A DNA stretch of 64,000 bases from Acidimicrobiales bacterium (GTDB lineage: Bacteria; Actinomycetota; Acidimicrobiia; Acidimicrobiales; SZUA-35): the NCBI GenBank assembly GCA_050330635.1, contig JBHJNQ010000024.1, forward strand, positions 38,374-102,373, read 5' to 3'. Of the stretch, positions 6,069 through 44,686 are shown in pieces. Position 1 is the stretch's first letter. Every line of letters begins with the position of its first letter. The notes beneath the pieces were generated by a model. That model did no database searches and was not told the DNA's origin. It saw only the letters and a list, made by a program, of their open reading frames with translations. A program made the translations under genes and the position numbers.

Positions 6069-6374
6069 GGGTCGCCCCGGGCCACCGGGGTCACCCCCTG
6101 AGATCGTCGAGCAGCGACGGGTCACCGAAGGTCTGGCGTTCGCCCCGGTCGACCGGAAGACCGTTGGGACCGAGCTCGCCGAAACCCAACGCCAGGGCGG
6201 CGGCAGCTCCCGGAGCTCCAACCGCCTGTGTGGTCCGGACCCCCGGGAAACCATCCATCGACCATCGAGCGTAGACCACGGCACCGCCTGGACGACGGCC
6301 GAACATGCGGGCGACGGACCGGCGGTCACCCGGCTCCGCTCGAGCGCCGGAGGGACGCGACTGCCGACCCGACG

Positions 6375-7381
6375 GTGCGGGTCGCCGATAGCGTCGAGCG
6401 GGTGGTACCCGTCAGCCGAGTCGAGGAACCTTCGGTAGAAGAGGCGGTCGAGCGGCTGGACGACGTTGCGGTCCGGCGGTTGCTGGTGACCGCGGCGGAG
6501 GCCCACGAGGACGTCGGCCGGGCGGTTCGGCTGGCCGCCGCCGGCGACGGGGAGCGCCTCAGCGTGTTGCGGGCCGAAGTCGATCGCGGCCTGCGCCCAC
6601 GCCGGCACCTCGGGTACCGCGAGTCGTCGGCGTGGGCGCGGGAGGCCGCCCCGGTGGTGGACGCCCTCACCGAGGCGGTCGCCACCGAGCCCTCCCCCCA
6701 AGCTGGTCGTGCTGTTGGAGCGCCCCCTCGGGCACCTCGTGAAGGTGATCCTGCGGGCCGATGACTCCGACGGCATCATCGGTGATCTCGCCCGACGCGT
6801 CCTCGACCTGCACCGAATCAGCCGCGCGTCCGGTGCGGCCGACCCGGTCAAGCTGGCCCGATGGATGGTCCGCTGACGCCGACGGTGTGTTGGCTCTGCG
6901 GCGGGAGCAGCACCGGCGGACGCCGATCTTTGCGACCTACGCCTTGTTGCAGGCGGCGGCGCGTGCCCAGGACATCTGGGACGTCGAGCGCTCCGAGGCC
7001 CGCCACGTCCTCGCCTCCAGCAACCTTCGCGCCCTCATCGACGCCCTGCTCGCCGACGGGGACATCGACGAAGCCTGGTCCCTGGCGACGGCCGGGGACG
7101 GAACGCCCGATGGTTCGCAATGGAAACGCCTGGCCGAGGCGAGGGAACCCACCGACCCCTCCGGCGCACTGGATGTGTACCTTCGGCTGGCCGACGATGC
7201 GTTGGTCGTCACCGGCAAGGGTGCCTACCGCGAGGCGGTCCGACATCTCACCGCCGCCCACCGGGCCGCCACCGCAGCCGGACGCCTCGCTGATCTCGGC
7301 ACCAGGATCACGGACCTGCGCCAGCAGCACCGCCGCCGACCCACCCTCATCGCCATGCTCGACAAGGCCGGGCTCCGGTGA
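6375..7381 (+). pseudogene. Conserved actinobacterial hypothetical protein, interrupted by two +1 frameshifts
   Basis: The sensible protein runs through three frames: ...LTEAVATEPSP | KLVVLLERPLGHLVKVILRADDSDGIIGDLARRVLDLH...KLARWMVR* | ADADGVLALRREQ...RRRPTLIAMLDKAGLR. The shifts sit at the C6 run 6694-6699 and near 6874. Confidence 0.55.
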
Positions 7382-7590: not shown

Positions 7591-8388
<798 letters not shown>

Positions 8389-9776: not shown

Positions 9777-10897
9777 CGTTCGTCCTGCTGTTCGTACCAG
9801 ATCAGGGCCCGTTCGAGGCCGTCGTCGATGCCGACCTCGGGCTCGTAGCCGAGGAGGGAGCGGGCCTTGTCGATGACGGGGCACCGCCGGTTGGGGTTGT
9901 CGGTGAGGTACTCGGGGTCGTCGGAGGTTTCGAGCACCACCCGACCGTCGTAGTCGAAGAGCTTGCGACCGAGTTCGGTGACCCGCTCGGCCAGCTCCCG
10001 CATCGAGATCTCCGGCCGGTCGGTGCCGACGTTGAACGACTCGCCGGGATACCGGGCGCTGTTGCCGAGGATCAGGTAGTAGCCGGTGACGGCGTCGGCC
10101 ACGTAGCAGAACGTGCGGGTGGCCGACCCGTCGCTCAGCAGCACCACGTCGCGGCCGTTGAGGACGTCACGGGCGAAGTCGGGCAGGACCCGCCCGTCGT
10201 CGATCCGCAGGCCAGGGCCGTAGTTGTTGAACGGGCGGATGATCCCGATCGGCAGGTCGTACTGGCGGGCGAAGTTGACGCACAGGGTCTCCCCGTAGCG
10301 CTTCGACTCGTCGTAGCAGGCCCGGGGGCCGGTGCAGCTGACGGAGCCCCGGTAGGTCTCGTCGGTCGGTATGCGGTCGGGGTCGGGGTCGCCGTAGATC
10401 TCGCTGGTGGAGAAGAAGGCGAATCCCTTCACCGGGTGGTCGGCGGTGGCCCGGTCCTTCAGGTGGTCGAGGAGCATGCGGAGGCCGTCGACGTTGGCGT
10501 CCATCGTCTCGATCGGGTACTGGCGGTAGTAGATGGGCGAGGCGACCGAGGCGGCATGGATGATCCAGTCGAAGCGGGGCTCCCCCTCCGGCATGGGGTC
10601 GAGCACGCTGCGGGTCACGATCCGCAGGGCCGGGTCGTCGAGTGAACCGAGCCAGTCGGGCACCCCCCGCAGGAAGTTGTCGTGGACGCTGACCCGCACC
10701 GGATCCCGGCTCGGGTTGGCGGCGTTCCACGCCAGCGGGGCCTGCACCAGGTAGTAGCCGAGGAAGCCGGCCCCGCCGGTGATGAGCAGGTCGTCGCCGC
10801 TCATGGCGGAGAAGACGGCGTCGAGACGCCTGGTCAGCGACGCCAGGTCCTCGCCGACGATGTCTCGGGGGGTGGTGGGCGCGTCGGTGGCGGTCAT
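9773..10897 (-). CDS. NAD-dependent epimerase/dehydratase (UDP-glucuronate decarboxylase-like)
   Basis: ITGGAGFLGYYL, YDESKRYGE (YxxxK). Its stop overlaps the ugd start (ATGA), so the two form an operon. Confidence 0.85.
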   Translation of the reverse strand: MTATDAPTTPRDIVGEDLASLTRRLDAVFSAMSGDDLLITGGAGFLGYYLVQAPLAWNAANPSRDPVRVSVHDNFLRGVPDWLGSLDDPALRIVTRSVLDPMPEGEPRFDWIIHAASVASPIYYRQYPIETMDANVDGLRMLLDHLKDRATADHPVKGFAFFSTSEIYGDPDPDRIPTDETYRGSVSCTGPRACYDESKRYGETLCVNFARQYDLPIGIIRPFNNYGPGLRIDDGRVLPDFARDVLNGRDVVLLSDGSATRTFCYVADAVTGYYLILGNSARYPGESFNVGTDRPEISMRELAERVTELGRKLFDYDGRVVLETSDDPEYLTDNPNRRCPVIDKARSLLGYEPEVGIDDGLERALIWYEQQDER

Positions 10898-12493: not shown

Positions 12494-13396
12494 ATGCGCA
12501 TCGGGCTGTTCACCTTCGTCGACTCCATCCCCCAGCTGACCGAACTGGCCACCACCGCCGAGGAGCAGGGCTTCGACAGCCTGTGGGTTCCTCAGACGTT
12601 CGGGCTCGACACCCTGACCGCCATCGCCGTCGCCGGCCAGCAGGTGAGCCGCATCACGTTCGCCACGGCCGTCGTCCCCACCTACCCCCGCCATCCCCAG
12701 ATGCTGGCCCAGCAGGCCCTCACCGTGAACGGCGCCATCGACGGCCGGCTCGTGCTCGGTATCGGCCCGTCGCACCAGCCGGTGGTCGAAGGGTCGTGGG
12801 GGCTGTCGTTCGACAAGCCGATCCGCCACCTGCGCGAGTACCTCGAGGTGCTGATGCCGCTCCTCCACGACAGGAAGGTCCGCTTCGATGGGGAGTCGAT
12901 CACGACCAGGGCCGACATCACGGTCGACGCCCCCGCCCCCAAGGTGATGATGGCCGCCCTCGGTCCGCAGCTGCTGAAGGTCACCGGCCGCCTGGCCGAC
13001 GGCACCATCCTCTGGATGACGGGGCCCCGCACGATCGAGACCCACAGCGTCCCCACCATCGCCGCCGCCGCCGCCGAGGCCGGCCGGGCCCAGCCGGAGA
13101 TCGTGGCCGGCTTCCCGGTATGCGTCACCGACGGTTCGGCCGAGGCCGACCGGGCCACGAGGGAGCGGGCGGCCAAATCGTTCGCCATCTACGGCACCCT
13201 GCCCTCCTACCGGGCCATGCTCGACCGCGAGGGGTACGAGGGCCCGGCCGACCTGGCCATCATCGGTGGGCCCGACGAGGTGGGCGAGCGGATCGCGGCC
13301 ATGGCCGGCATCGGGGTGACGACGTTCGCCGCCTCCGAGTTCGGCTCCAGCGACCAGCGGGCCGCCACCCGGGAACTGCTCGTCGGCATGCTCTGA
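12494..13396 (+). CDS. LLM-class (luciferase-like) F420/flavin-dependent oxidoreductase
   Basis: MRIGLFTF...AEEQGFDSLWVPQ...LGIGPSH... pattern typical of LLM-class oxidoreductases. Confidence 0.88.
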   Translation: MRIGLFTFVDSIPQLTELATTAEEQGFDSLWVPQTFGLDTLTAIAVAGQQVSRITFATAVVPTYPRHPQMLAQQALTVNGAIDGRLVLGIGPSHQPVVEGSWGLSFDKPIRHLREYLEVLMPLLHDRKVRFDGESITTRADITVDAPAPKVMMAALGPQLLKVTGRLADGTILWMTGPRTIETHSVPTIAAAAAEAGRAQPEIVAGFPVCVTDGSAEADRATRERAAKSFAIYGTLPSYRAMLDREGYEGPADLAIIGGPDEVGERIAAMAGIGVTTFAASEFGSSDQRAATRELLVGML

Positions 13397-13405
13397 CCCG
13401 ACGGC

Positions 13406-13465
13406 GGGACCGACTGCGGAACCGACGCCGGAACCGACTGCGGAACCGACGCCGGGACCGACGAC
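13406..13465. repeat. 12-nt tandem repeat x5 (GGRACCGACKSC), alternating as a 24-nt unit
   Basis: gggaccgactgc ggaaccgacgcc ggaaccgactgc ggaaccgacgcc gggaccgacgac, starting 10 nt after the LLM stop. Confidence 0.9.
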
Positions 13466-13758
13466 CCACCACCGGGGTGGGCCGAGTCGGCCGGCACCGT
13501 CGTTTCCCCTCTCGTTCCCTCGTGGCGGAACGGCAGCTCATCGATCGGATCGTCGGCGGCGACGCCGCCGCCCATGCCCGGGCTCTGTCCCTCTACGCCG
13601 GGGCCGAGCCGGCCGTGCGGACCGAGATGCTCAATCAGCTGGCGGGCCGCTGACGGTCACCCGGGCCACCGGCCCTGCGCTCATCGTCGGCCCGGCGTCA
13701 GTCGTCGGGCCGAACGCTCACGTCGATGGCTCGAGCCGATCCGGGGCGGTGGTGCCGG

Positions 13759-15222
13759 TCAGGCCTGGTAGCTGCTCGAGGTGGTGGCGCCGCCCGCGCC
13801 CGTCCAGTCGGTGTGGAAGTGCTCGCCCCGGGACCGGTCGACCCGTTCGTAGGTGTGGGCCCCGAAGTAGTCGCGCTGGGCCTGGATCAGGTTGGCCGGG
13901 CCCCGGCGACGGCGGATCCCGTCGTAGAAGGCAAGGGCCGACGAGCAGGCCGGCAGGGCCAGGCCGGCCGTGGCACCGGCCGCCACCACCCGCCGCAGCG
14001 AGCCCTCGGTAGCAGCGAGGGCCTCGGCGAAGAATGGGGCCAGGAGGAGGTTGGCGTCGGCCGCGCCGTCGCGGTAGGCGTCGGTGATGTCGTCGAGGAA
14101 ATCGGCCCTGATGATGCACCCGGCCCGCCACAACGACGCCACCGTGCCAAGGTCGAGGCCCCACTCGTACTCGAGTGAGGCCTCGGCCAGCAGCATGAAA
14201 CCCTGGGCGTACGACACGATCTTGGCGGCGTAGACCGCGCCCTCGATGTCGTCGGGGGAGACGGTGTCGCCGTCGAGCGTCCCGTCGGGACCGCCGAGGG
14301 TGGCCGATGCCGATGCCCGCAGGTCGATCAGGGCCGAGAGCTGGCGGGCCATCACCGCCTCGGCGATCAGGGTCAGGGGCTGGCCGAGCTCGAGCGAGTT
14401 GCCCACCGTCCACCGCCCCGTGCCCTTCTGGCCGGCGGCGTCGAGGATGAGATCGACGACGGGTCGACCGTCGCCGTCGACGGTGGTGAGGATCTCGGCC
14501 GTGATGTCGACCAGATACGACGACAACACCCCGTGACGCCACCGCTGGAACACGGCCCCCATCTCGGCATTGCTGTGGCCCAGGCCGGCCAGGAGGGCGT
14601 AGGCCTCGGCCAACACCTGCATGTCGCCGTACTCGATCCCGTTGTGCACCATCTTCACGAAGTGCCCGCTGCCGCCGGGGCCGAGCCAGGCGGCGCACGG
14701 GGCCCCGTCGTCGGCCCGGGCGGCGATCGCCTCGAGCACGGGCATGACGAGGTCACGGGCCTCCGGTGAGCCGCCGGGCATGATCGAGGGGCCGTGTCGG
14801 GCGCCCTCCTCGCCCCCCGACACGCCCGTTCCCACGTAGAGGACGCCCCGTTCGCCCAGCGTCTCGATCCTGCGGGCGGTGTCGGCGAAGTGGGAGTTGC
14901 CGCCGTCGATGATCACGTCACCCTCGTCGAGGAGGCGGGAGAGCCGGTCGACCACGGTGTCGACCACCGCTCCCGCCTTCACCATCAGGAGCACGCGCCT
15001 CGGTCGCGGGAGCCGGCTCACCAGGTCGTCCAACGACGACGTGGCGACGACACTGCCGGCAGCGGCGTGGGCCGCCCCCGGCCCCGCCACGAAGTCGGAC
15101 GTCACCTGTTCGGTGCGGTTCTGGACGGCGACCGTCAGCCCGTGGTCGGCCAGGTTGAGGGCGAGGTTCTGGCCCATGACGGCGAGTCCGACGAGCCCGA
15201 TGTCAGCAGCGGTGGAGGCCAT
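13759..15222 (-). CDS. gnd: 6-phosphogluconate dehydrogenase (decarboxylating)
   Basis: IGLVGLAVMGQNLALN, GTGVSGGEEGAR, HFVKMVHNGIEYGDMQ, AQRDYFGAHTYER are all canonical Gnd motifs. Confidence 0.95.
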   Translation of the reverse strand: MASTAADIGLVGLAVMGQNLALNLADHGLTVAVQNRTEQVTSDFVAGPGAAHAAAGSVVATSSLDDLVSRLPRPRRVLLMVKAGAVVDTVVDRLSRLLDEGDVIIDGGNSHFADTARRIETLGERGVLYVGTGVSGGEEGARHGPSIMPGGSPEARDLVMPVLEAIAARADDGAPCAAWLGPGGSGHFVKMVHNGIEYGDMQVLAEAYALLAGLGHSNAEMGAVFQRWRHGVLSSYLVDITAEILTTVDGDGRPVVDLILDAAGQKGTGRWTVGNSLELGQPLTLIAEAVMARQLSALIDLRASASATLGGPDGTLDGDTVSPDDIEGAVYAAKIVSYAQGFMLLAEASLEYEWGLDLGTVASLWRAGCIIRADFLDDITDAYRDGAADANLLLAPFFAEALAATEGSLRRVVAAGATAGLALPACSSALAFYDGIRRRRGPANLIQAQRDYFGAHTYERVDRSRGEHFHTDWTGAGGATTSSSYQA

Positions 15223-15281
15223 CGGCCAAACCTAACTGGCCCACCCCGCCCGGAACGCACCGCGAGTTTGCCCCCGGCCCG

Positions 15282-17216
15282 GTGGGGCCGATGGCCCACG
15301 GCGGTGGGCGACTCATCATCTGCGCCCGGACCGCCCCGTCGTCCGATGTTCGGGAGGTGACCGGATCCCGAACCGAGCCGGCCGCCACAGACGCCGCTCC
15401 GTCGCGGACCTGGCGGGCGACACCGACGGCGGCGACCGCCATCCGGGTGGCGGTGGCGGTCGCACCCCTGCTCTGTACCTGGCTCGCCGTCCACCTCGCC
15501 TCGCCGTGGTTCTACCGGCCGGCGGGCCGGCTCGGTCTGGCCTGGTGGGTGTTCCAGGCCGCCCCGTTGGGGCTGGTCGTGTCGGCCACCGTCGATCGGG
15601 TGGCCCGACGGCTCCTCCCCCTCGCCTTCCTCCTCGACCTGACATTGGTGTTCCCCGATCAGGCCCCGTCCCGTTTCGCCGTCGCGCTGCGCACCGGCAC
15701 CGTGTCGCGGCTGCGGGACCGGTCGGTCGACGTCCGGCGCCGCGGCCTCGACGACACCGGCGGCATCGGCGGGTCGGCCCAGCGGGCGGTCGAGCTCCTG
15801 GCCACCGTCGGGCACCACGACCGGGCCACCCGCGGCCACACCGAACGGGTCCGGGCCTACAGCGACATGATCGCAGCCGAGCTCGGTCTGGCCAACGACG
15901 AGCGGGCCAAGCTGGCCTGGGGCGCCCTCCTCCACGACGTGGGCAAGCTGACCGTGCCGGCGTCGATCCTCAACAAGGCGGGCCGACCGAGCGACGTGGA
16001 ATGGGCCATCATCGAGCAGCATCCCGCCGCCGGGGAGGAGATCATGGCCGCCCTCCAGCCGTGGCTCGGCGGGTGGACGGGGGCCGCCAGCGATCATCAT
16101 GAGCGGTGGGACGGGGCCGGGTACCCCCGTCGACTCCACGGCGCCGACATTTCACTCGCCGGTCGTATCGTAGCGGTGGCCGACGCCTACGACGTGATGA
16201 CCTCGGTCCGCTCGTACAAGCGGCCCCTCGCCCCCGCGGCGGCCCGCCGTGAACTAGTGGCGTGCGCCGGGAGCCACTTCGACCCGACGGTGGTGCGAGC
16301 GTTCGTGACCACGGCCCTCCCCCCACCCTGGCGCTGCGGCCCGTTCGGCTGGCTGCTCGAGCTGATCAGGACGTCGGGTTGGGCCTCGACCGGCGGCGGG
16401 GTGGTGTCGAGCACCGTACTCGCCATCGGGGGCACCCTGGCCCTCGGCCCGGTGACGCCCCCCACCGAGTTGTCCTTCGCCGACGTGGCGCCGGCTCTCG
16501 GCCAGCTGATCCCACCCGACCGGCCGACGCTCGACGGCGTCGGAGCGCTGCCGGCGCTGCTCTCGGACCCGGGCGCCGGCCGGGCCGCTTCCACCGGCGA
16601 CGCCACGGCGACGACGACGGCTCCGGAGCCGGGCCCGACGGACGGCGGAGACGGTGAGGCGACGGCCGGCGGTCCGCTCGCTCCCGAGCCGTCCGGAATA
16701 CCCGAGGACATCCCCGCCCCCGGAGCGCCGCCCTCCCGGCCGCCGGCGACACCACCGGTGGCGGCGCCCCCGTCGACGGTCCCCGCCACCGTCCCGACCA
16801 CGGGCGCCCCCGTTCCTCCGCCCCCCGCGGCGGCCCCCGCCGCTCCGCCCGGCACCGTGCCGCCCGGGACAACGGTGCCGGCCGGGACAACGGTGCCGGC
16901 GGCGGAGACGGCTGGGCCCGTCGCCGTCGACGACCGGGACACGGTGGTGGCGGGGCGACTCGTGGCCATCGACGTCCTGGCCAACGACCACCTCGACCGG
17001 CGGGCCGGACCCCACCGCCTGGAGATCGTGGGCGGAGGCGCCGCACGGGCCCGGACATGGATCCAGTGGGACGCCGGACGCCCGTGGCCTGGCACCTTCA
17101 AGCTGTTCTACCGGGCGGGCCCGGACCCGATCGTCGACGTGATCGTCTACCGGGTGTGCGACCGCCACGGGCGCTGCAGCGAGGCCACGGTCACGATCGA
17201 GGTGACCGACGACTGA
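15282..17216 (+). CDS. Membrane HD-GYP domain protein with a Pro-rich spacer and a C-terminal cadherin-like/Ig-like domain (start uncertain)
   Basis: N-terminal TM helices. HD-GYP core (HTERV...LLHDVGK...HHERWDGAGYP). Another TM (VVSSTVLAIGGTLALG), a Pro-rich region, then PVAVDDRDTVVAGRLVAIDVLANDH...TVTIEVTDD. Confidence 0.85.
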   Translation: MGPMAHGGGRLIICARTAPSSDVREVTGSRTEPAATDAAPSRTWRATPTAATAIRVAVAVAPLLCTWLAVHLASPWFYRPAGRLGLAWWVFQAAPLGLVVSATVDRVARRLLPLAFLLDLTLVFPDQAPSRFAVALRTGTVSRLRDRSVDVRRRGLDDTGGIGGSAQRAVELLATVGHHDRATRGHTERVRAYSDMIAAELGLANDERAKLAWGALLHDVGKLTVPASILNKAGRPSDVEWAIIEQHPAAGEEIMAALQPWLGGWTGAASDHHERWDGAGYPRRLHGADISLAGRIVAVADAYDVMTSVRSYKRPLAPAAARRELVACAGSHFDPTVVRAFVTTALPPPWRCGPFGWLLELIRTSGWASTGGGVVSSTVLAIGGTLALGPVTPPTELSFADVAPALGQLIPPDRPTLDGVGALPALLSDPGAGRAASTGDATATTTAPEPGPTDGGDGEATAGGPLAPEPSGIPEDIPAPGAPPSRPPATPPVAAPPSTVPATVPTTGAPVPPPPAAAPAAPPGTVPPGTTVPAGTTVPAAETAGPVAVDDRDTVVAGRLVAIDVLANDHLDRRAGPHRLEIVGGGAARARTWIQWDAGRPWPGTFKLFYRAGPDPIVDVIVYRVCDRHGRCSEATVTIEVTDD

Positions 17217-17841: not shown

Positions 17842-18022
17842 CCGGGTACGCCGGGTCCATGGCGTCCTACCGCGTCCACGACGCCGCCGTCGGCCGGGCC
17901 TGGGAGCTGACCCGGGTCGGCCACGTGGTCGGGAACGCTCCCGCTGGCCCGTCGAGTTGAGCCCGCCCGCCTGGTCGTGGTGAGGTGAGACACCGACCGA
18001 CGACGACGACAAGGGGATCCCG

Positions 18023-18994
18023 ATGGTGGCCGAGCTCGACCTGACCAACTACCTCGACGCCGAGCACCTGTCCGTCCTGCGGGCCATGCCCGCCGACCTG
18101 TTGGACCTGCGCGACATCCCCGCGGCCCGGCAGCGCTTCGAGGCCGCCCTCGAGGCCATGCCAGCCGTGGAGCTGCCACCCGAGGTGGCTATCTCCGAGG
18201 AACTGGTGCCGGGCCACGATCCGGAGGACCCGCCGGTGCGGATCAAGATCTATCGCCCCGAGGGGCTGGCCGCCGGAGCGGCGGCCCTGTACTGGATCCA
18301 TGGCGGGGGGATGGTCATGGGCAGCGCCGACCAAGACGACTCCCGCTGCGCCGTGTGGGCCGCCGCCCTCGGTGCCCTCGTCGTCTCCGTCGACTACCGC
18401 CTCGCCCCCGAGGATCCGTACCCCGCTCCCCTCGACGACTGCTACGCCGGTTTGGTGTGGCTGGCATCGTCGTCGTCGGATCTCGGGGTCGACCCCGACC
18501 TGATCGCCATCGGCGGGGCCAGCGCCGGGGGCGGCCTGGCCGCCGGCCTCGCCCTGCGGGCCCGTGACGCCGGTGGTCCGGCGATCTGCTACCAGCATCT
18601 CGTCTATCCGATGATCGACGACCGCAACGATACCCACAGCAGCCACGCCATCACCGATCCCCGGGTGTGGAACCGGGAGGCCAACCGGCTGGGGTGGGCC
18701 GCCTATCTCGGCCAGTCCGGTCAGGGAGGCGAGGTACCGATCTACGCCGCGCCGGCGCGGGCCACCAACCTGAAGGGACTACCCCCCGCCTACCTGCCGG
18801 TGGGATCGCTCGACCTGTTCCTCGACGAGAACATCGACTACGCCCAACGAATGCTCCAGGCGGGGGTGCCGGTGGAGCTGCGGGTCTACCCCGGAGCGTT
18901 CCACGGCTCGAACGGCTTCGCCTCCCGCACCGCCATCTCCCGGCGATGGATCAAGGACGAGCTCGACGCCGCCCGTCGCGGCCTCGGCGGCTGA
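18023..18994 (+). CDS. Alpha/beta hydrolase (hormone-sensitive-lipase-like esterase)
   Basis: HGGG oxyanion motif (WIHGGGMV) and the nucleophile elbow GASAGG. Confidence 0.88.
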   Translation: MVAELDLTNYLDAEHLSVLRAMPADLLDLRDIPAARQRFEAALEAMPAVELPPEVAISEELVPGHDPEDPPVRIKIYRPEGLAAGAAALYWIHGGGMVMGSADQDDSRCAVWAAALGALVVSVDYRLAPEDPYPAPLDDCYAGLVWLASSSSDLGVDPDLIAIGGASAGGGLAAGLALRARDAGGPAICYQHLVYPMIDDRNDTHSSHAITDPRVWNREANRLGWAAYLGQSGQGGEVPIYAAPARATNLKGLPPAYLPVGSLDLFLDENIDYAQRMLQAGVPVELRVYPGAFHGSNGFASRTAISRRWIKDELDAARRGLGG

Positions 18995-19093
18995 TCCCCC
19001 GCTGACCCCGGTCGCCGTCCCAGCGGCCCGGCGGCCTCGAGCCACCGGACGCGCCGGCAGGCCCGGTGGGCGCCGGGTCTTCGGTCGGTCGGC

Positions 19094-19447
19094 TCAGAGC
19101 CGTTCGTTGAACTCGACGAGATTGCCCGAGGGGTCCTTGCAGAAAACCTGCCGGCACACGCCGGCGATCTCGCTGGCCTTCGACACCTTGTGGCCGACCC
19201 CGGCCAGCCGCTCGGTTACACCGTCGACGTTGTCGACCTCGAAGGCGTAGTGTTGTCCTGCGTTGTCGGGGACGTCCTGCACGATGAGGTGGATCTCACG
19301 ACCGTCGGGACAGCCGAGCCACACGCCATCGACCCCGAGCTCGGGACGTGGGAGCACGTCGAGGCCGAGTACGTCGGTGTAGAACGACTGCGTGGCGGGG
19401 AGATCGCTCACGTTGATGGAGACATGGTGAACGCCGCGTAATTCCAT
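19094..19447 (-). CDS. VOC family (glyoxalase/bleomycin-resistance fold) protein
   Basis: GVHHVSINVSDL...FYTDVLGL...HYAFEV...DPSGNLVEF pattern. 117 aa. Confidence 0.88.
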   Translation of the reverse strand: MELRGVHHVSINVSDLPATQSFYTDVLGLDVLPRPELGVDGVWLGCPDGREIHLIVQDVPDNAGQHYAFEVDNVDGVTERLAGVGHKVSKASEIAGVCRQVFCKDPSGNLVEFNERL

Positions 19448-20418: not shown

Positions 20419-20455
20419 GGGCGCCAGCCGTTCACGCAACGGCTCGGCGGAGTCT

Positions 20456-20569
20456 GCTCAGTGGGCCATGCCCAGTGGGCCATGCTCAGTGGGCCATGCT
20501 CAGAGGGCCATGCTCAGTGGGCCGTGCTCAGCGGGCCGTGTGCTCAGCGGGCCGTGCTCAGCGGGCCCT
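20456..20569. repeat. 14-nt tandem repeat x8 (consensus GCTCAGTGGGCCAT; one unit is 16 nt)
   Basis: Units read directly, with progressive divergence toward the 3' end (T>C, A>G). The last unit carries the stop (TCA at 20558-20560) of the minus-strand ORF. Confidence 0.9.
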
Positions 20570-20947
20570 GACCGCGCCGTTGCCGCCGGCGGTGCTCGTC
20601 GTGGTGATGGGAACGAGCCGGGGATCGAGGCGGCGCCGCGCCATCCACCGGTAGCGGCGGCGATGGCGCGATGGCAGGGCGTGCCACTCCTCGGGGGTCA
20701 GATCGTCGGCCGTGGGGGGAACCACCGACGCCTCCTCGTCGTCGAGGGCCCGGAGGAGCTGGCGCCGAAGCTCCTCGGCGTCGGGACCCCGGACGGTGGG
20801 ACGAAGACCGTCGACCGCTGCACCGGCCGACGTCGCCGTGAGCTCGAGCCACAGATCCAAGTCGACCGGTTCGTCGCCGGTCGAGCGACCAGTGAACAGG
20901 GAAGGGGCCGGCCTCCCTGCGGCCCGGCGCCAAAGATGGAACCTCAT
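20558..20947 (-). CDS. Hypothetical protein downstream of the sigma-like gene
   Basis: ATG preceded by gagagaggtgacg. Acidic/helical composition (DLDLWLELTA...AEELRRQLLRALDDEE). I recognise no family. Confidence 0.5.
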   Translation of the reverse strand: MRFHLWRRAAGRPAPSLFTGRSTGDEPVDLDLWLELTATSAGAAVDGLRPTVRGPDAEELRRQLLRALDDEEASVVPPTADDLTPEEWHALPSRHRRRYRWMARRRLDPRLVPITTTSTAGGNGAVRAR

Positions 20948-37779: not shown

Positions 37780-38235
37780 TCAAACGGTGAACCACTCGGT
37801 GACGATGTCGCCCCCCTCGACGGTGGCCACCAGACGCACCGGGCCCGACACCGGTCGGGGGAAGCGGAACTGACCCTCGCCGTCGCACGACTGGATGTCG
37901 GCCCCGCCATCGGCCCGCACCAGCCGGATCGACATGGCGGGTGGCACGACCTGACCGAGGAGGGCCTCGGGGCCGATCTCGATCTCGACCGAGGCCCCGG
38001 ACGTAGCGAACGACAGGTGGACCGACGACCCGCCGGTGCGGACGAGGACCTCGTCGGATCCGGCGAGCGAATCGAACTGGAGATGGGCCAGCTCCTCGTC
38101 GACCGTGCGCCACACGAAGGCGGCCCGGGCCGCCGCCATCAGACGGTCGGGCACGGGATCGAAGGCGTTGACCGCGGTCCGCAGCTCGTCGAGCAGGCGG
38201 TCGTCGTCGAGGTCGTCGGAGGTCTCAGCGTTCAT
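37780..38235 (-). CDS. 151-aa soluble protein coupled to the ECF sigma (candidate cytoplasmic anti-sigma/partner)
   Basis: Its ATG shares a base with the sigma stop (TGATG). Acidic helical N-terminus (DDLDDDRLLDELRTAV), beta-rich C-terminus (GQFRFPRPVSGPVRLVATVEGG). No TM segment. Confidence 0.7.
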   Translation of the reverse strand: MNAETSDDLDDDRLLDELRTAVNAFDPVPDRLMAAARAAFVWRTVDEELAHLQFDSLAGSDEVLVRTGGSSVHLSFATSGASVEIEIGPEALLGQVVPPAMSIRLVRADGGADIQSCDGEGQFRFPRPVSGPVRLVATVEGGDIVTEWFTV

Positions 38236-38846
38236 CAATCCTGTCCCAACAGGTGCATTCCCCGGGATGACCGGAGCTTGTCGAGGCATCGGGCCCGGGT
38301 GGGTCCGATGCTGCCGATCGACATGCCGAGCAGCTCGCTCACCCGCTCGTAGGAGAGGGGTGGATCGGCGATGAGGAGGCGCAGCAGACGCTGGCAGGCC
38401 TCCGAGAGGGAGCCGAAGGCCCGCCACAGGACCTCGTCACGGGCCTCGTCCATGGCGCCCTGGTCGACCCGGGCGTCATGGTCGACGAGGTCGATCTCGA
38501 AGTCGTCGCGCAGCTTCTCCCGCCCTCCCACCCTGACGGTTCGCAGGCACTCGTTGCGGGCCGTGCTGGCCAGCCACCCACCGAGGCTGTCGGGCTGACG
38601 GATCCGGTCGAGATGCTCGGCCAGGCGGAGCCACGTGGTCTGGTAGACGTCCTCGCCGACGGCGTCGGGGAGACGGAAGCCGCGGATGACGTGCCACACC
38701 AGCCCCGCGAATCTGGCCACCAACTCGTTCCACGCTCCCTCGTCGCCGTCACGCGCCGCTCCGACGAGGGTGGCCAGGTCGCTGTTCACGACGGCCATCC
38801 TAGGGGTCGCCTCCTGCGGCCTCGGCATCGACGGTGACGCGCTCAT
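38235..38846 (-). CDS. ECF-type sigma-70 family RNA polymerase sigma factor (alternative start 38798)
   Basis: Region 2 (AWNELVARFAGLVWHVIRGF...DVYQTTWLRL) and region 4 (LSYERVSELLGMSIGSIGPTRARCLDKLR). The ATG at 38846 overlaps the S8 stop (ATGA). Confidence 0.88.
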   Translation of the reverse strand: MSASPSMPRPQEATPRMAVVNSDLATLVGAARDGDEGAWNELVARFAGLVWHVIRGFRLPDAVGEDVYQTTWLRLAEHLDRIRQPDSLGGWLASTARNECLRTVRVGGREKLRDDFEIDLVDHDARVDQGAMDEARDEVLWRAFGSLSEACQRLLRLLIADPPLSYERVSELLGMSIGSIGPTRARCLDKLRSSRGMHLLGQD

Positions 38847-40207
38847 GGGTGGGCGTTCACGACGGTGCCGAGAGCGGGATGACGGTAGAGGTGGGCCTCG
38901 TCGATGATGCGGACCACGGCCTCGGCGGGGGTGCAGGCATGGCGGACGCAGCATTGGAGCAGGGCGCCGACCACGATCGGGGCGGCGAACGACGTGCCAC
39001 TCCACCGGGCCCACCCGTCGAAGTGCCCGTCCCGCCCGTCGGTCGGCAGCGTTTTGGGGTCGCCTCCGGCGGGGACGAAGAAGTTGCTGACGATGTCCAT
39101 GCCGGGGGCACAGGCCCGAACCCACGGACCGAAGTTGGTGAAGGGCGCCGGCCCGCCGGGGCCGAGGGCGCCCACCGATACGACGCCGGGCTGGGCCGCC
39201 GGCCACGACGGCCGGTAGCTGGCGCTGTTGCCGGCCGAGGCCACCACGACCGAACCACGGGCCATCACGTGTTCCAGGACCCGGGTGATCGCCATCGGGG
39301 GCCGGTCGTCCTCGGTGTAACCGCTGAACGAGAGGTTGAACACGTCGGGCAACTGGTGGGGGGCGAGGGCCGCGATCTGCTTGGCGATGTAGGCGTCGTC
39401 GCCGACCCCGAACGTGTTGAGGACGCGGTCGACCCGGATGCGGGCCCCGGGAACCATGCGGTCGATGATCCCGGCGATGAAGGTGCCATGGCCGGCCGCG
39501 GTGTCGACCTCGTCGTTGCGGTCCTCGTCGGGTCGGTCGACGTCGACCCCCTCGGCGACCGGCTGGACCCCGCCCACGAAGGCGGGGCGGAAGTCGGAGA
39601 ACGCCAGGCCGGTGTCGTACACCCGCACCTGGAGTCTGGCGTGGGCCGGTACCGGGGCGGGCAGCGGCCCCGGATGGGCGCACCCCACGGCCAGGGTCTG
39701 GGTCGGCGCCTCGGCTGGCGTGACCGGTGCCTGGTAGGTCCCGAAGCAGTCGGCGCAGCACCCGCCGGCCGTGCCCAGACCGGCATTGGCGAACGTCACC
39801 GGGTTGGCGAACGTGACCGGGTTGGCGAACGTCACGGGGTTGGCGAACGTGACCGGGTTGGCCCGGGTGAACGAGTCGAGCTTCACCGGATCGGCGAAGA
39901 AAACGTGGTTGACCTGGGCCTCCACCCCGAGCGAGCGGAGCCGGCGGGCGACCGACACCACGTCGACCCCCGAGCCGGGGGCGAACACGACGAGGAACAG
40001 CTCCTCGGGGATGATCGAGTCGTCGACCTGATAGTCCGTTCCCTCGGGCACGACCCGCCGCAGCGCCTCCAGACCGGGTGGGGTGAGGAGTAGCTCGTTC
40101 GGTTCGTAGACGAACGGCCGACCGCCACTGCCCGTCCCGAACCCGACCCGTGAGAGCCAGTTCGGGTCCCAGGGGCGATCCATTTCGACGTTCTTGTCCA
40201 CAGCCAC
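38843..40207 (-). CDS. S8 (subtilisin-like) serine peptidase without a signal peptide; N-terminal propeptide-like domain plus (ANPVTF)x4 linker
   Basis: Catalytic motifs VYDTG (Asp), AAGHGTF (His), SGTSFAAP (Ser). No hydrophobic N-terminus. GTG start with gagaggga as RBS. Confidence 0.88.
   Translation of the reverse strand: MAVDKNVEMDRPWDPNWLSRVGFGTGSGGRPFVYEPNELLLTPPGLEALRRVVPEGTDYQVDDSIIPEELFLVVFAPGSGVDVVSVARRLRSLGVEAQVNHVFFADPVKLDSFTRANPVTFANPVTFANPVTFANPVTFANAGLGTAGGCCADCFGTYQAPVTPAEAPTQTLAVGCAHPGPLPAPVPAHARLQVRVYDTGLAFSDFRPAFVGGVQPVAEGVDVDRPDEDRNDEVDTAAGHGTFIAGIIDRMVPGARIRVDRVLNTFGVGDDAYIAKQIAALAPHQLPDVFNLSFSGYTEDDRPPMAITRVLEHVMARGSVVVASAGNSASYRPSWPAAQPGVVSVGALGPGGPAPFTNFGPWVRACAPGMDIVSNFFVPAGGDPKTLPTDGRDGHFDGWARWSGTSFAAPIVVGALLQCCVRHACTPAEAVVRIIDEAHLYRHPALGTVVNAHP
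39788..39859 (-). repeat. 18-nt in-frame tandem repeat x4 encoding ANPVTF
   Basis: ggcgaacgt[c/g]ac[c/g]gggtt x4. Units differ only at synonymous positions. Confidence 0.9.
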
Positions 40208-40400
40208 CGTCAGTCGTTCCCTCTCTCGGACGGGAGTGGTGTCCTCGCTTCACTTGAGCGCAACGCCGCCCCCCTGATACGTCGACCGCGTGACACCGAC
40301 GCTGTGACGCCCGTCCCGCCTCGGGCGACGCCACGGCCGGGCGTGACACAATCGACCAACCACCGTCGCAGCGAACATAGTCGGTTCGGGAGGTCGCGCC

Positions 40401-43064
40401 GTGAACAGGGCTCGCAGCGCCCTCGACAATGTCCAGAGCACACCGACGGTCGCCATCGGCCAGGCCCGCGCCATCCTCGCCGACTCCTCGGCCACCGACG
40501 AGGAGCGGGCGACTGCGCTGTGGGCCATGGGCCGGGCCGCCAGCGAGCTCGACGACGTCGAGCGGGCGACCGCCTCGTTGGAGGACGGGCTGGCCATCGC
40601 CCTCGCCGCCGGGCTGGCGGCCCTGGCCTCCGACATCCGCGTCAGCCTCTCGGTGCTCCGCCTCACCGGAGGCGACACCGCCGGTGCCCGGGCCCTGCTG
40701 GACGAGGCCGAGGCCGACGCCAGCGCCGGCGGCCCGCGGGGCCGTCTGGTGATGCAGCGCGGGCTCGTCGACCTCCACGTCGGTGACCTCGAGGCCGCCA
40801 TCGCCCACCTCGATGCCGCGCTCCCTCACCTGGCCGATGGGGGCGACGAGATGGCCCGGGCCCGCCTCCTCATCAACCGGGGTGTGGCCCTGATCGTCTC
40901 GGGGGAGCTCGACCGGGGCGAGGCCGACTGTCTCGGGGCCCGGGAGCTGGCCGACCGGCTGGGGCAACGCATGATCAGCGCCGGCGCGGCCCAGAACCTC
41001 GGCTTCGTGGCCGATCGCAAGGGCGACCTCCCCGCCGCCCTGGCCTGGTTCGACGAGGCCCGGGCCGGCTACGCCGCCCTCGGCTCGCCCCGCCGGGTCA
41101 TGGTGACCCTCGAAACCGATCACGGGTCGGTGCTGCTCAACGGTGGCCTCTACGCCGAGGCCGCAGCGGCGGCCGAGCGGGCGGCCGCCCTGGCCGGAGC
41201 GGCCGGCAACCGGCTGGCCGAGGGCGAGGCGGTCCTCCTCCTCGCCCGGGCCCGGCTGGCCGAGGGCGACCACGCCGGAGCCGAACGCCACGCCACCGCC
41301 GCCGCCGACCACTTCGAGCACTGCGATCGACGGTCGTGGGTGGCGGCCGCCGAGTACATCGGACTCCAGGCGGCAGCGGCGCGGATCGCCACCCCCGACG
41401 AGGTGCTGCTCGACCGGGCGGTCACCATTGCCGACGCCCTCGATGCCAGCGGCCGCCGCCGGGAGGCGCTCGAGGTGAGGACGTTCGCCGGCCGGACGGC
41501 CCTCGCCCTCGGCCGGGCCGACACGGCCCGCCACCAGCTCACCCTCGCCGCCGCCGCCCGCGACTCCGGTTCGTCGTCGGTCAGGGCCGACGCCTGGCTG
41601 GCCGCCGCCTCCCTCCACCTCGTCGACGGCGACAAGCCGGCCGCGGCCCGGGCCCTGGCCCGGGGTATGGACATCGTGGAGGAACGGCGCTCGATGCTGG
41701 GCTCCACCGAGCTGCGGGCCCACGCCTCGATCAATGCCTCCGGGCTGGCCGAGCTCGGCCTCCGGCTCGCCTTCGACGACGACTCCCCGGCCGAGGTGCT
41801 GCGATGGGCCGAACGATGGCACGCCGGCGCCATCCGCCAGCCCCCGGAACAGCCCCGACCGGGCAGTCGGCTGGCCGAGGCCCTCGTCGAGCTCCGCCAG
41901 GCCCACGCCGACGCTGCCGCCGGCCCCAGCGACCCGTTCGACGACGACGGTGTCGACGGCACGATCGCCCGGCTGGAGCGCCAGATCCGTCACCTCAGCC
42001 GCCAGGTGGCCACGAACGGCGGCGGCCCCGACCATGGCGGACCGGTCGACGCGGAGGCGCTCGGTGCGCTCCTCGGCGAGGACCTTCTCGTGGAGCTCGT
42101 CGTCGTCGGGTCGGAGCTCCGGGCGGTCACGGTGACCGCCGACCGGTTGCAGACGCACCGGCTGGCCTCCACCGACCTCGTGGCCGACCTCGTCGACAAG
42201 GCGGGATCGGCCCTGGCCCGGCTGGCCTACGGCCGGAGCCCGGACCGGGTCCGCCAGGCGACGAGCCGGGCCCTGGCCGACTCGGCCTCCCGGCTCGACG
42301 AGCTGCTCCTGGCACCGCTCGACCTCCCCCCGGACGTTCGGGTGGTGGTCGTTCCCACCGGCCCTCTCCAGCGCCTCCCGTTCGCCCTCCTCCCCAGGTT
42401 GGCCGACCGGCCGGTGACGGTGACCCCGAGCGCGTCGGTGTGGGCCGCCGGTGCCGTCCCTGCGGACGGCCGACACGGGGCCCGGGCCCGGACCGTACTG
42501 GCGTGCGGGACCGCCCTGCCGGGCGGCGAGCGGGAGGTCGACGACCTGCGCTCCCTCTACCCCGATCCGACGGTGCTGGTCGGTTCGGCCGCCACCGTTC
42601 CCGCCGTGGCCGGGGCCATGGAGTGGGCCGACATCGTCCACCTGGCCGCCCACGGACGGTTCCGCCACGACAACCCCATGTTCTCCTCCCTCGCCCTGCA
42701 CGACGGACCGTTGACCGTGTACGACATCGAGTCGCTCCGGTCGGCCCCCCGAACCGTGATCCTCTCGGCCTGCGACGCCGCCCGGGCGTCGGTCCATCGG
42801 GGCGACGAGCTGCTGGGCACGGCGGCGTCGCTGCTCCAGGTCGGCGTTCGCACCGTGGTGGCCCCGATGACCGTCGTGCCGGACGCCAGGGCCGTGCCCC
42901 GCCTCATGGTCGAGCTCCACCGCCGGCTGGTGGCGGGCGACCGCCCGGACGAGGCGCTGGTGCGGGCCCGCCAGGTGCTGGTTGCCGAGTTCGACGCCCT
43001 CGACATGGCCGTGGCCGCCGCCTTCGTCGCCATCGGCACACACCTTCCCCGAGTGTCATCGTGA
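40401..43064 (+). CDS. TPR-like repeat / CHAT domain (caspase-like) protease, 887 aa
   Basis: About 600 aa of Ala/Leu-rich helical repeats, then a CHAT core with His in IVHLAAHGRF (codon 42651-42653) and Cys in VILSACDA (42771-42773). GTG start after gggagg. Confidence 0.88.
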   Translation: MNRARSALDNVQSTPTVAIGQARAILADSSATDEERATALWAMGRAASELDDVERATASLEDGLAIALAAGLAALASDIRVSLSVLRLTGGDTAGARALLDEAEADASAGGPRGRLVMQRGLVDLHVGDLEAAIAHLDAALPHLADGGDEMARARLLINRGVALIVSGELDRGEADCLGARELADRLGQRMISAGAAQNLGFVADRKGDLPAALAWFDEARAGYAALGSPRRVMVTLETDHGSVLLNGGLYAEAAAAAERAAALAGAAGNRLAEGEAVLLLARARLAEGDHAGAERHATAAADHFEHCDRRSWVAAAEYIGLQAAAARIATPDEVLLDRAVTIADALDASGRRREALEVRTFAGRTALALGRADTARHQLTLAAAARDSGSSSVRADAWLAAASLHLVDGDKPAAARALARGMDIVEERRSMLGSTELRAHASINASGLAELGLRLAFDDDSPAEVLRWAERWHAGAIRQPPEQPRPGSRLAEALVELRQAHADAAAGPSDPFDDDGVDGTIARLERQIRHLSRQVATNGGGPDHGGPVDAEALGALLGEDLLVELVVVGSELRAVTVTADRLQTHRLASTDLVADLVDKAGSALARLAYGRSPDRVRQATSRALADSASRLDELLLAPLDLPPDVRVVVVPTGPLQRLPFALLPRLADRPVTVTPSASVWAAGAVPADGRHGARARTVLACGTALPGGEREVDDLRSLYPDPTVLVGSAATVPAVAGAMEWADIVHLAAHGRFRHDNPMFSSLALHDGPLTVYDIESLRSAPRTVILSACDAARASVHRGDELLGTAASLLQVGVRTVVAPMTVVPDARAVPRLMVELHRRLVAGDRPDEALVRARQVLVAEFDALDMAVAAAFVAIGTHLPRVSS

Positions 43065-43185
43065 GGTCCGCCGGGAGCCTCCGGCACCTGACCTGGGGAC
43101 GGCGACCCACCCGCCCGGTGAGGATCTGCTCAGGCGGGCTACGCTGCCGGCTCTGTACGGTGTCGATTGTTGGGGCGACAGACGT

Positions 43186-43220
43186 CATGACGGCCGGCTG
43201 TGGGGCGGTCGGCCGTCATG
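43186..43220 (+). promoter_or_regulatory. 11-bp perfect inverted repeat (CATGACGGCCG ... CGGCCGTCATG) with a 13-nt spacer
   Basis: Lies between the CHAT stop (43064) and the pentapeptide gene ATG (43250). Could be a terminator or an operator. Confidence 0.4.
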
Positions 43221-43249
43221 CAGTCGCTCGAAAGGGAAGTGGCGGACCC

Positions 43250-44686
43250 ATGGAGTCTCCGATGTCGTCGACGTCCGAGCCGACGCCCCCGCGGCGACGG
43301 CTGGAGCCCGTCGCCCTCGCCCTGGCCGGCCTCGCCGTCGTGGTGGTGGGGCTCGCTGTCGGAGTGGCCCGCTACCGCTCGATCGGTGACGACGAGCCAC
43401 TGACGATGGTAGTGGCCGACGTCGCCGTCGTCGGATGGGTGCTGGGGGGCGGCCTGTCTGCCATCGCCCTGGCCGTGTTCTGGTCGGGCCGGCAACGGTT
43501 GGCCGTCGCCGAGCGGGGGGCGGCGGTGGCCGCGGCCCACCTGGCCGCCGTCAACGACCAGCTCGCGCTCCAACGCCAGGCCGCCGACCGCCAGCTCGTG
43601 GTAGCGGAGCAGAATCTCCGGTCGGACCGTTTCGCCCAGGCGGTGTTGCAGTCGTCGGGCCGCTCGGCGGCGCTGCGGAAGGTGGGCCTGCTGGCGATGG
43701 AGGGCCTCGCCGTCGACTTCGAGGGCCGGTTCGCCGCCTCCACCTACGAGTTCCTGGTGGCCGTCGTGCGCGAACGGTTGACCGACCTCGCCGCCGTCAC
43801 GGTGCGACCGGGAGCCGATCCCGATGTCGTGACCGCCCTCGGCATCCTGGCCCGCAACCGGGAGCTGTTCGACCGCAGCAACGAGGCCCTGGCCGCTGAC
43901 ACCGCGGCCCGGGGCGGTACCGGTGTCCACCTCCTCGATCTCGACCTGTCGGGCGCCCGCCTCCACGCCCTCGACCTGGCCGACGCCACCCTCAGCGGGG
44001 TGCGGCTGGTGGGCGCCAGCCTCGACGAGGTCACCTTGGCCGGCGCCGTGCTGAACGGCTGCAGGCTGGACGACGTCCAGTTGTCGGCGTGCGATCTCGC
44101 TCGGACCCGCCTCTACGGCTGCAACCTCGCCGACGCCGTCGTGGCCGACACCTCGTTCGAGCGGGCCACGATCCGTGGCTCCGCATTCGACCGCTCGGCC
44201 CTGACCGGCGCCAGCTTCCGTCGGGCCAACCTCACCGACGTGTCCATGGCCGACGCAGCGCTGGGGCGCGTCAGCTTCGACGACGCCCTCCTCACCGATG
44301 CCGACCTGACCGGGGTCTCGGTCGGGCCCGGCACGACCTTCACCCGGGCCACCCTGTCGTCGGTGGATCTGTCACGATCGGTCGTCGACGGGGCCAGCTT
44401 CGCCAGCGCCACCGTCAACGACACACGCCTGACGGGGGCCCGCGTCGACGACACCAGCTTCCATCGGGCCTCACTCCGCCAGTGCAACGTGGGGGCGGCC
44501 ACGTTCACCGCCGTCGATTTCACCGACGCCACGGCCAGCGACGTCGACTTCGGTTCGGCCGACCTCGTCGGCACCGACCGTCCGCCAGCACCCGCGGCCA
44601 TGACCGGCGCCCCGTCGGCCACCGCCACGACCGCGACCTCGACGACCGCCACCGCCCCCACCGCCCCGACGACACCCACCGCCTGA
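43250..44686 (+). CDS. Membrane-anchored pentapeptide-repeat protein
   Basis: Two N-terminal TM helices, then a helical region (NLRSDRFAQAVLQ...). About 200 aa of A(D/N)LxG-type pentapeptide repeats (LSGARLHALDLADATLSGVRLVGASL...). Pro/Thr/Ala tail. RBS aaagggaag. Confidence 0.85.
   Translation: MESPMSSTSEPTPPRRRLEPVALALAGLAVVVVGLAVGVARYRSIGDDEPLTMVVADVAVVGWVLGGGLSAIALAVFWSGRQRLAVAERGAAVAAAHLAAVNDQLALQRQAADRQLVVAEQNLRSDRFAQAVLQSSGRSAALRKVGLLAMEGLAVDFEGRFAASTYEFLVAVVRERLTDLAAVTVRPGADPDVVTALGILARNRELFDRSNEALAADTAARGGTGVHLLDLDLSGARLHALDLADATLSGVRLVGASLDEVTLAGAVLNGCRLDDVQLSACDLARTRLYGCNLADAVVADTSFERATIRGSAFDRSALTGASFRRANLTDVSMADAALGRVSFDDALLTDADLTGVSVGPGTTFTRATLSSVDLSRSVVDGASFASATVNDTRLTGARVDDTSFHRASLRQCNVGAATFTAVDFTDATASDVDFGSADLVGTDRPPAPAAMTGAPSATATTATSTTATAPTAPTTPTA

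Follow-up and report, generated by a model that had tools for sequence, protein, structure and literature searches.

A TPR-CHAT protease, a signal-less pro-subtilase and an ECF sigma factor encoded together in a probable actinobacterial ECF54 module

How would a caspase-like protease come to be encoded beside a sigma factor where there is no CRISPR array? The question is raised by a locus at positions 37780-44686 of a 64,000-nucleotide stretch of DNA (hereafter, the window) from an Acidimicrobiales bacterium (assembly GCA_050330635.1, contig JBHJNQ010000024.1, positions 38,374 to 102,373). The contig comes from a stromatolite metagenome and its host is an uncultured, Acidimicrobiia-like organism. 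The core of the locus consists of four genes, which encode a protease with tetratricopeptide repeats (TPR) and a CHAT domain, a pro-subtilase of family S8 lacking a signal peptide, a sigma factor of the extracytoplasmic function (ECF) type, and a partner protein of 151 amino acids (aa). In the Craspase system of type III-E CRISPR, Csx29 cleaves Csx30, freeing RpoE. The initial annotation, made from the sequence alone, proposed that the locus might be a CRISPR-independent analogue of this switch, with a composition not found among characterised systems. We find that it very probably belongs to the actinobacterial ECF54 sigma-factor modules, because its domain content, its gene context, and its promoter agree with the published description of that group.

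Group ECF54 was reportedly defined by Huang, Pinto, Fritz and Mascher in 2015, and the description in the later re-classification is said to agree with theirs. The latter (bioRxiv 10.1101/2019.12.11.873521, supplement file 4) describes a group that is 100% actinobacterial and has no anti-sigma factor. A carboxypeptidase-regulatory-like protein is always encoded at position +1, a subtilase at +2 or -1, and a CHAT protein with TPRs at +3 or -2, and the predicted promoter has GTATCAG at -35 and CTCC at -10. The locus and its relatives are likewise restricted to Actinobacteria. Their sigma factor has regions 2 and 4 only; in the window the partner lies at +1, the S8 protease at -1, and the TPR-CHAT protease, divergently transcribed, at -2. 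The predicted promoter is of the GTATCAG...CTCC type, and there is no recognised anti-sigma factor. The window differs in its +1 protein, which falls below Pfam detection although the predicted beta-sandwich is present, and in its host. The composition thus matches a published and named group, down to the promoter, and a mechanism has been proposed there; a full-text literature search for 'ECF54' found no experimental study. As a member of this group, the window is one more, metagenomic, example and adds little beyond that.

We scanned the partner alignment against one genome per species (185,579 species) and obtained 322 matching stretches. We kept 80 of these loci for comparison and tested the proteins of the window on them by tblastn. 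All related loci are in Actinomycetota, where they span several orders and classes, with hosts in Acidimicrobiia, Kribbella, Nocardioides, Micromonospora, Geodermatophilus, Cellulomonas, Labedaea, Nakamurella, Jiangellaceae, Egibacteraceae, and Nonomuraea. The sigma gene adjoins the partner gene in all 80 loci, and the genes of both proteases lie within 10 kb in most of them. Full 10-kb flanks are available for 54 loci; the four genes are complete in 50 of these, three contain only sigma and partner, and one lacks the S8 gene. The complete set also occurs in Nocardioides and Nonomuraea. There are at least five gene orders. The commonest is S8(-) CHAT(+) sigma(+) partner(+), with 29 loci, followed by CHAT(-) S8(+) sigma(+) partner(+), with 24 loci, which includes the type of the window. 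The co-occurrence of the genes across genomes, which the initial annotation had suggested checking, is therefore borne out, and so is their divergent arrangement, since S8 and CHAT adjoin each other in divergent orientation in 62 of 67 loci. The gene set has been kept through rearrangement, and this is strong evidence that the four core genes form a functional unit. Two loci carry duplications: L080 has two copies of the partner gene (10001-10429 on the plus strand and 13187-13627 on the minus strand) and L051 has two copies of the CHAT gene (14249-16660 and 17895-19214).

Open reading frames (ORFs), Pfam, and NCBIfam confirm the five genes that were initially placed in the locus. The fifth, which encodes a pentapeptide-repeat protein (Pfam Pentapeptide, E=1e-23), had been listed with the cluster. 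We discard it as a component of the module because tblastn against the 80 related loci gave no homologue of it. A simple hydropathy analysis gives clear transmembrane-type segments in this protein and none in the four core proteins, in line with the cytoplasmic location first attributed to the latter.

The promoter provides the third element of the assignment. The only GTATCAG of the 64-kb window is at 40274-40280 on the minus strand, within the 193-bp intergenic region between the S8 and CHAT genes. It provides a -35 element, GTATCA (40275-40280), which is separated by 16 nucleotides from a -10 element, CTC(A) at 40256-40258, and the whole points into the S8-sigma-partner operon. No other site of the window comes within one mismatch of TGTATCA followed by CTC after 16 or 17 nucleotides. 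The closest relatives (L001-L004) have ACGTATTT-N16-CTCGTC in the same intergenic region, i.e., a variant -35 element with equal spacing. In the 80 loci, GTATCA itself is about as frequent as expected by chance (171 observed, 163 expected). Yet 99 of these 171 sites have a CTC at a distance of 15 to 17 nucleotides, for which the estimated chance is roughly 5%. Such sites are mostly upstream of sigma, and also upstream of S8, but rarely precede CHAT (4 of 99), and the CHAT gene of the window has no promoter of this type. When the partner is not co-transcribed with sigma (L015, L057), it has an ECF54 promoter of its own. Since an ECF54-type promoter precedes the operon, we think that sigma drives its own expression: the operon, S8 included, is probably positively autoregulated, and CHAT would be produced independently of it. 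A scan of the locus for sigma-70 promoters and intrinsic terminators found none.

Several other regulatory signals were observed in the window and in the related loci. The part of the divergent intergenic region nearer to CHAT holds two plus-strand copies of CGTGACAC, 53 bp apart (40289-40296 and 40342-40349). Another regulator might bind there; over the whole window, the number of copies of CGTGACAC is at chance level. In Micromonospora, loci L018, L020, L022, L030, L040, L043, L056, and L079 have the full four-gene module and no GTATCA nearby, and the -35 element of this clade is probably a different one. In Kribbella, a second ECF54-type promoter (TGTATCA-N16/17-ACTCCGCA) lies at about 5239 (plus strand) of L008 and at the same place in about 25 loci of the genus, including L009, L011, L013, L014, and L016. 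It lies in the interval that separates the stop codon of a lipoprotein-like gene from the convergent 3' end of S8. No convincing ORF follows it, and the transcript would be either antisense to S8 or a small RNA. Further putative ECF54 promoters near the module were found in L012 (6256, minus strand), L026 (5443, minus), L055 (13161, minus), L068 (5937, minus), L067 (10493, plus), and L027 (three sites). In three unrelated loci they precede genes for signal-less muramidases or peptidoglycan binding (Phage_lysozyme in L012, GH25 in L026, PG_binding_1 in L055). Elsewhere they precede genes for a secreted DUF6345 protein, a ThiF-like enzyme, a large S8 protein, a WhiB-like regulator, and an SBP_bac_11 protein with a weak vWA match. 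There are thus hints of cell-wall-directed outputs of sigma; the numbers are small and some of the sites are perhaps due to chance.

The sigma factor matches Sigma70_r2 (E=2e-10) and the TIGR02937 model of sigma70-ECF (69 bits, for a cut-off of 42.9). Its region 4 holds two cysteines, C150 and C187, and cysteines in this region have been reported for some ECF54 subgroups (bioRxiv 10.1101/2019.12.11.873521, supplement). The three genes of the operon had been described as joined by overlapping stop and start codons. This holds for sigma and partner, whose stop and start overlap by 1 nucleotide as TGATG. An overlap of the S8 stop with an upstream ATG of sigma (ATGA) is also present, but sigma most likely begins at ATG 38798, because an AGGAGG lies upstream of this codon, the public gene call on the same contig gives a protein of 187 aa, and homology to relatives starts at residues 15-27. 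On these grounds the ATGA overlap is the less likely start. With ATG 38798, a gap of about 44 nucleotides separates S8 from sigma.

Both proteases have well-conserved catalytic residues and are thus presumably active. The TPR-CHAT protein matches CHAT (E=3e-31, 109 bits, cut-off 24) and TPR_12 (E=2e-7). The His and Cys initially recognised in it are indeed present, in the motifs HLAAHG (His751) and LSACD (Cys791), and H747, H751, G752, and C791 are at least 95% conserved among 69 homologues. When this protein was searched against PDB sequences, it showed TPR similarity to LGN/Pins alone, with no match to Csx29. The subtilase matches Peptidase_S8 (E=3e-20, 73 bits), and its triad and oxyanion Asn (D198, H240, N327, and S406) show at least 95% conservation across 70 sequences. 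We built an AlphaFold2 model of this protein from a 68-sequence alignment (predicted template modelling score of 0.82). It has an N-terminal domain of beta-alpha-beta-beta-alpha-beta topology, with a predicted local distance difference test (pLDDT) above 92, docked on the catalytic domain. The full-length Foldseek matches of the model are pro-forms—PCSK9, fervidolysin (1r6v), ProN-Tk-SP (3afg), unprocessed pro-subtilisin E (3whi), and pro-Tk-subtilisin—with alignments spanning about 445-475 columns, whereas the Pfam I9 model has no match on the protein. Model and structural matches thus back the propeptide-like N-domain of the initial annotation. The linker that follows this domain holds five copies of ANPVTF in the window, and in homologues it is variable and repeat-rich, to the point that some score as Extensin_1. 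The S8 protein therefore looks like a signal-less zymogen, whose predicted propeptide is tethered through a long and variable linker (about 55 residues). It shares with the I9 pro-subtilases (pro-subtilisin E, pro-Tk-subtilisin, fervidolysin, PCSK9) the association of a propeptide with the catalytic fold and an intact Asp-His-Ser. It differs from them by the lack of a signal peptide, which implies a cytoplasmic location, by the disordered repeat linker, and by its co-transcription with a sigma factor.

The partner is the least familiar of the four proteins. Homology search gave 132 homologues, whose alignment contains an invariant N-terminal motif, AAFxWRTxDxELAxLxxDS; in a set of 81 sequences, conservation reaches 95% or more at A38, A39, W42, R43, D46, E48, L52, D55, and S56. 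The copy of the window has no match in Pfam or NCBIfam domain searches. Within the family, 18 of 26 members match PF13620 (CarboxypepD_reg) at E<=1, and this is the only family found at permissive thresholds of Pfam and NCBIfam. PF13620 is a 'carboxypeptidase regulatory-like' beta-sandwich and not a peptidase. The AlphaFold2 model of the partner has a mean pLDDT of 81, exceeding 90 in the beta-sandwich. Residues 45-62 form a low-confidence segment, with pLDDT below 50 at positions 47-60. Searches of the PDB by fold and by profile gave generic Ig-like sandwiches alone (E >0.02 by fold), with neither Csx30/Csx31 nor an anti-sigma factor among them. The conserved residues W42, R43, D46, E48, L52, D55, and S56 start at the end of helix 2 and extend into the low-confidence segment. 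Given the predicted structure, this pattern would suit a motif that folds on another protein or enters the active site of a protease, which makes it a candidate for either role. The features of the locus are listed in Table 1.

Table 1. Positions of the genes, domains, and sites of the locus in the window.
Feature	Position	Strand	Remarks
Partner, 151 aa	37780-38235	-	ORF confirmed; ECF54 '+1' position; candidate soluble anti-sigma
Partner, C-terminal beta-sandwich (residues 64-151)	37783-38046	-	AlphaFold2 prediction
Partner, residues 36-56, ARAAFVWRTVDEELAHLQFDS	38068-38130	-	Highest conservation; candidate docking or cleavage motif
Partner, N-terminal helices (residues 9-24 and 30-44)	38104-38211	-	AlphaFold2 prediction
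ECF sigma factor, probable ECF54 type	38235-38846	-	Most probable start ATG 38798, 187 aa
Sigma region 4	38271-38417	-	
Sigma region 2	38529-38723	-	
S8 pro-subtilase, signal-less, 454 aa	38843-40207	-	Pfam Peptidase_S8
S8, disordered linker (residues 105-160)	39728-39895	-	AlphaFold2 prediction
S8 linker, 18-bp tandem repeat, 4.3 copies	39786-39862	-	Encodes ANPVTF hexapeptides
S8, I9-like propeptide (residues 17-104)	39896-40159	-	AlphaFold2 prediction and Foldseek
Putative ECF54-type promoter of the S8-sigma-partner operon	40256-40280	-	Motif match
TPR-CHAT caspase-like protease, 887 aa	40401-43064	+	Pfam CHAT, TPR_12
TPR-CHAT, helical-repeat sensor region (about residues 1-480)	40401-41840	+	
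CHAT domain (residues 628-862)	42282-42986	+	
CHAT catalytic His751	42651-42653	+	
CHAT catalytic Cys791	42771-42773	+	
Pentapeptide-repeat protein, two transmembrane segments, 478 aa	43250-44686	+	Neighbour, outside the conserved module

The window has a G+C content of 70-74%. The module is flanked by hisS/hisG and by genes for a desaturase and a luciferase-like oxidoreductase, and the remaining genes are metabolic or involved in transport. The genes hisG/hisS also adjoin the module in relatives L001-L005, which makes its position syntenic. Away from the module, we observed a tandem array of about nine copies of a 14-nucleotide unit (GCTCAGTGGGCCAT-like) at 20442-20570, and 6-nucleotide repeats, (ACGGCA)n, at 7856-7951 within a predicted gene (7591-8388, plus strand). 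An 859-aa protein with a cyclic-nucleotide-binding domain and a patatin-like phospholipase is encoded at 4272-6851 (minus strand), 33 kb from the module and with no sign of a link to it.

How would two proteases and a small protein control a sigma factor? A proposal that we hold tentatively, and whose chances fall slightly below even, is that the partner is a soluble anti-sigma factor, removed through cleavage by CHAT and/or the subtilase. We read the partner as a candidate anti-sigma factor, a purely functional inference, because it is always encoded beside sigma, usually with translational coupling, because it occurs with sigma in the absence of the proteases in 3 of 54 loci, because it has its own ECF54 promoter when the two are not co-transcribed, and because its conservation peaks in helix 2 and the low-confidence segment, as that of a binding or cleavage motif would. 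The N-terminal helices and the invariant linker motif of the partner would hold sigma inactive. The TPR-CHAT protease, made constitutively, would sense an intracellular cue through its array of about 480 residues of repeats and could then cut the exposed conserved linker of the partner directly. Alternatively, CHAT might first remove the propeptide or the linker of the pro-subtilase, and S8 would then destroy the partner. The freed sigma would amplify the operon. The additional sigma and S8 would act as positive feedback, and the additional partner would reset the system. It would also turn on genome-specific targets, including, near some modules, signal-less muramidases and secreted proteins.

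There are precedents for parts of this scheme. The Lon protease CalpL cleaves the anti-sigma CalpT, as cited in PMC12642450; by analogy with this literature, CalpL-CalpT-CalpS of type III CRISPR resembles the proposed scheme in that a soluble protease cuts a soluble anti-sigma protein and frees a cytoplasmic ECF sigma. It differs in the protease, which is Lon there and CHAT plus S8 here, and in its SAVED/cyclic-oligoadenylate input, as there is no nucleotide sensor in our locus. A study of SAVED-CHAT and PCaspase in type III-B CRISPR reportedly showed that a CHAT protease activates a second protease. This is a precedent for the two-protease cascade, which in our case would involve, as the second protease, a subtilase zymogen instead of a caspase-like protein, with neither SAVED nor a link to CRISPR. 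The general notion of a regulated-proteolysis switch acting on an ECF sigma, put forward in the initial annotation, seems to us a reasonable model.

Several observations weigh against this proposal. The partner matches no known anti-sigma family, whether ASD classes, ZAS, RskA, or others, in Pfam, NCBIfam, or PDB fold searches. The literature on ECF sigma factors identifies no anti-sigma for ECF54 and suggests direct proteolysis of sigma (PMC8999054; bioRxiv 10.1101/2019.12.11.873521). The S8 gene lies under the ECF54 promoter and could thus be an output and not a regulator. The -10 element of the window reads CTCA instead of the published CTCC, which is a match at three of four positions next to an exact -35, and the Micromonospora loci lack the GTATCA motif altogether. 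Taking both sides into account, we give the explanation as a whole, an ECF54 module working by proteolysis of an anti-sigma factor, an even chance of being right.

As an alternative, the proteases, and perhaps the partner, may be products of the sigma regulon and not regulators of sigma, serving intracellular proteolysis for development, stress remodelling, or programmed lysis, with the partner inhibiting or chaperoning the proteases. ECF54-type promoters do precede S8 in the window and in several other loci, and putative ones precede the muramidases and the peptidoglycan-binding protein beside the module in three unrelated loci. Moreover, regulators and targets are not separable from context alone (Casas-Pastor et al. 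2021). We nevertheless regard this explanation as unlikely, since CHAT so rarely follows the motif, sigma would be left without any regulator, and the near-universal, tight coupling of sigma and partner is typical of sigma/anti-sigma pairs.

Somewhat less probable again is that there is no anti-sigma factor, and that CHAT and/or S8 degrade sigma itself until a signal stops the degradation. This is how a review proposes that ECF54 is controlled (PMC8999054, section 3.3). It would fit the lack of a recognised anti-sigma domain in the partner, and the long variable linker between regions 2 and 4 of sigma could be the place of the cut. Yet direct degradation leaves without a role the +1 protein, which adjoins sigma in 80 of 80 loci, and the invariant motif of that protein, and there are sigma-partner pairs without proteases. 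The presence of S8 in the sigma operon would also make activation self-extinguishing; this could be negative feedback, though an unnecessary one.

The resemblance to Craspase suggests a further possibility, which is anti-phage defence or abortive infection without CRISPR: the TPRs would recognise a phage protein, CHAT would fire, and sigma would induce defence or suicide. The likeness lies in the TPR-CHAT protease encoded beside an ECF-type sigma and a small sigma-linked protein, such that proteolysis may become transcription, and the same logic is common to Csx29/Csx30/RpoE and CalpL/CalpT/CalpS. The differences are more numerous. As first stated, the window has no Cas7-11, CRISPR array, or NTPase: its other large ORFs are metabolic or transport genes and a scan for spaced repeat arrays found none. 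The similarity of the proteases is confined to the CHAT core, the TPR-CHAT protein scoring 20.8 bits against the Csx29 model NF041237 (cut-off 300), over residues 745-825 only. The partner has no match to Csx30 or Csx31 by NCBIfam, Pfam, or PDB fold search, and the pro-subtilase is extra. The idea of a kinship to the parts of Craspase must thus be abandoned; apart from the presence of an ECF sigma, each feature of Craspase was tested and found absent, and we rule out that the locus is a relative of it. An association of caspase-like proteases with ECF sigma factors outside CRISPR had been noted before, in EACC2-caspase neighbourhoods (PMC8195603).

The genomic setting is also unlike that of a defence system. 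Defence modules often contain caspase-like and S8 proteases (PMC12642450), lysozyme-type putative targets lie near some modules, and PADLOC gives weak generic matches (BovA, E=1e-4; a subtilase model, E=9e-9). PADLOC has, however, no system match, and nothing for sigma or partner. In contrast to Craspase, the module is chromosomal, syntenic, and outside defence islands. Its contexts in Nocardioides and Ilumatobacteraceae are metabolic or housekeeping, like that of the window, and about 30 Kribbella genomes among the 80 loci have it at near-identical positions within the loci. The partner has no match in 2.9 million viral contigs. The plasmid collection yields a single match, on an 11.85-Mb replicon of Nonomuraea that carries the whole module; the partner is absent from true plasmids. 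The check for a defence island suggested at the outset was thus negative, and in view of flanks, synteny, and viral and plasmid scans we reject both such an island and a mobile element. The module has the appearance of a regulatory unit passed on vertically, and not that of a mobile defence island, and a role in defence is very unlikely.

Finally, the partner might be a latent effector, Pepco-like or similar, released by cleavage while sigma only controls expression, given that small beta-rich proteins beside actinobacterial Ser/Cys proteases can be protease-activated pore formers (PMC12642450, section 8) and that the partner pairs N-terminal helices with a beta domain; this is highly improbable, because the partner is predicted to be a monomeric Ig-like/transthyretin-like sandwich (PF13620) instead of a barrel protomer, has its conserved motif at the N-terminus and a conserved strand at the end with no disordered C-terminal tail, and shows neither a hydrophobic surface signal nor a transmembrane-type segment.

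Returning to the soluble anti-sigma factor, its most elaborate version would make ECF54 a CRISPR-independent cytoplasmic cascade. TPR-CHAT would activate the tethered-propeptide subtilase zymogen, and both proteases would destroy an anti-sigma factor of a new soluble class, combining a helical hairpin with an invariant linear motif and a transthyretin-like sandwich. The sigma thus released would have outputs that include signal-less cell-wall hydrolases. In this complete form the scheme is rather doubtful, and we offer it as a speculation.

ECF54 is among the ECF sigma groups without a known regulator, and the locus provides new handles on it: C791 of CHAT, S406 and the disordered linker of S8, residues 36-56 of the partner, and the GTATCA-N16-CTC promoter. 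The matches of the partner scan include culturable Kribbella, Micromonospora, Nocardioides, Nonomuraea, Cellulomonas, and Geodermatophilus. If the anti-sigma model is true, caspase-like CHAT proteases control transcription outside CRISPR, and the module contains a new kind of soluble anti-sigma factor together with a rare cytoplasmic subtilase zymogen that has a regulatory job. If the full cascade is true, actinobacteria would possess a caspase-triggered route that acts through transcription and leads to cell-wall remodelling or programmed lysis.

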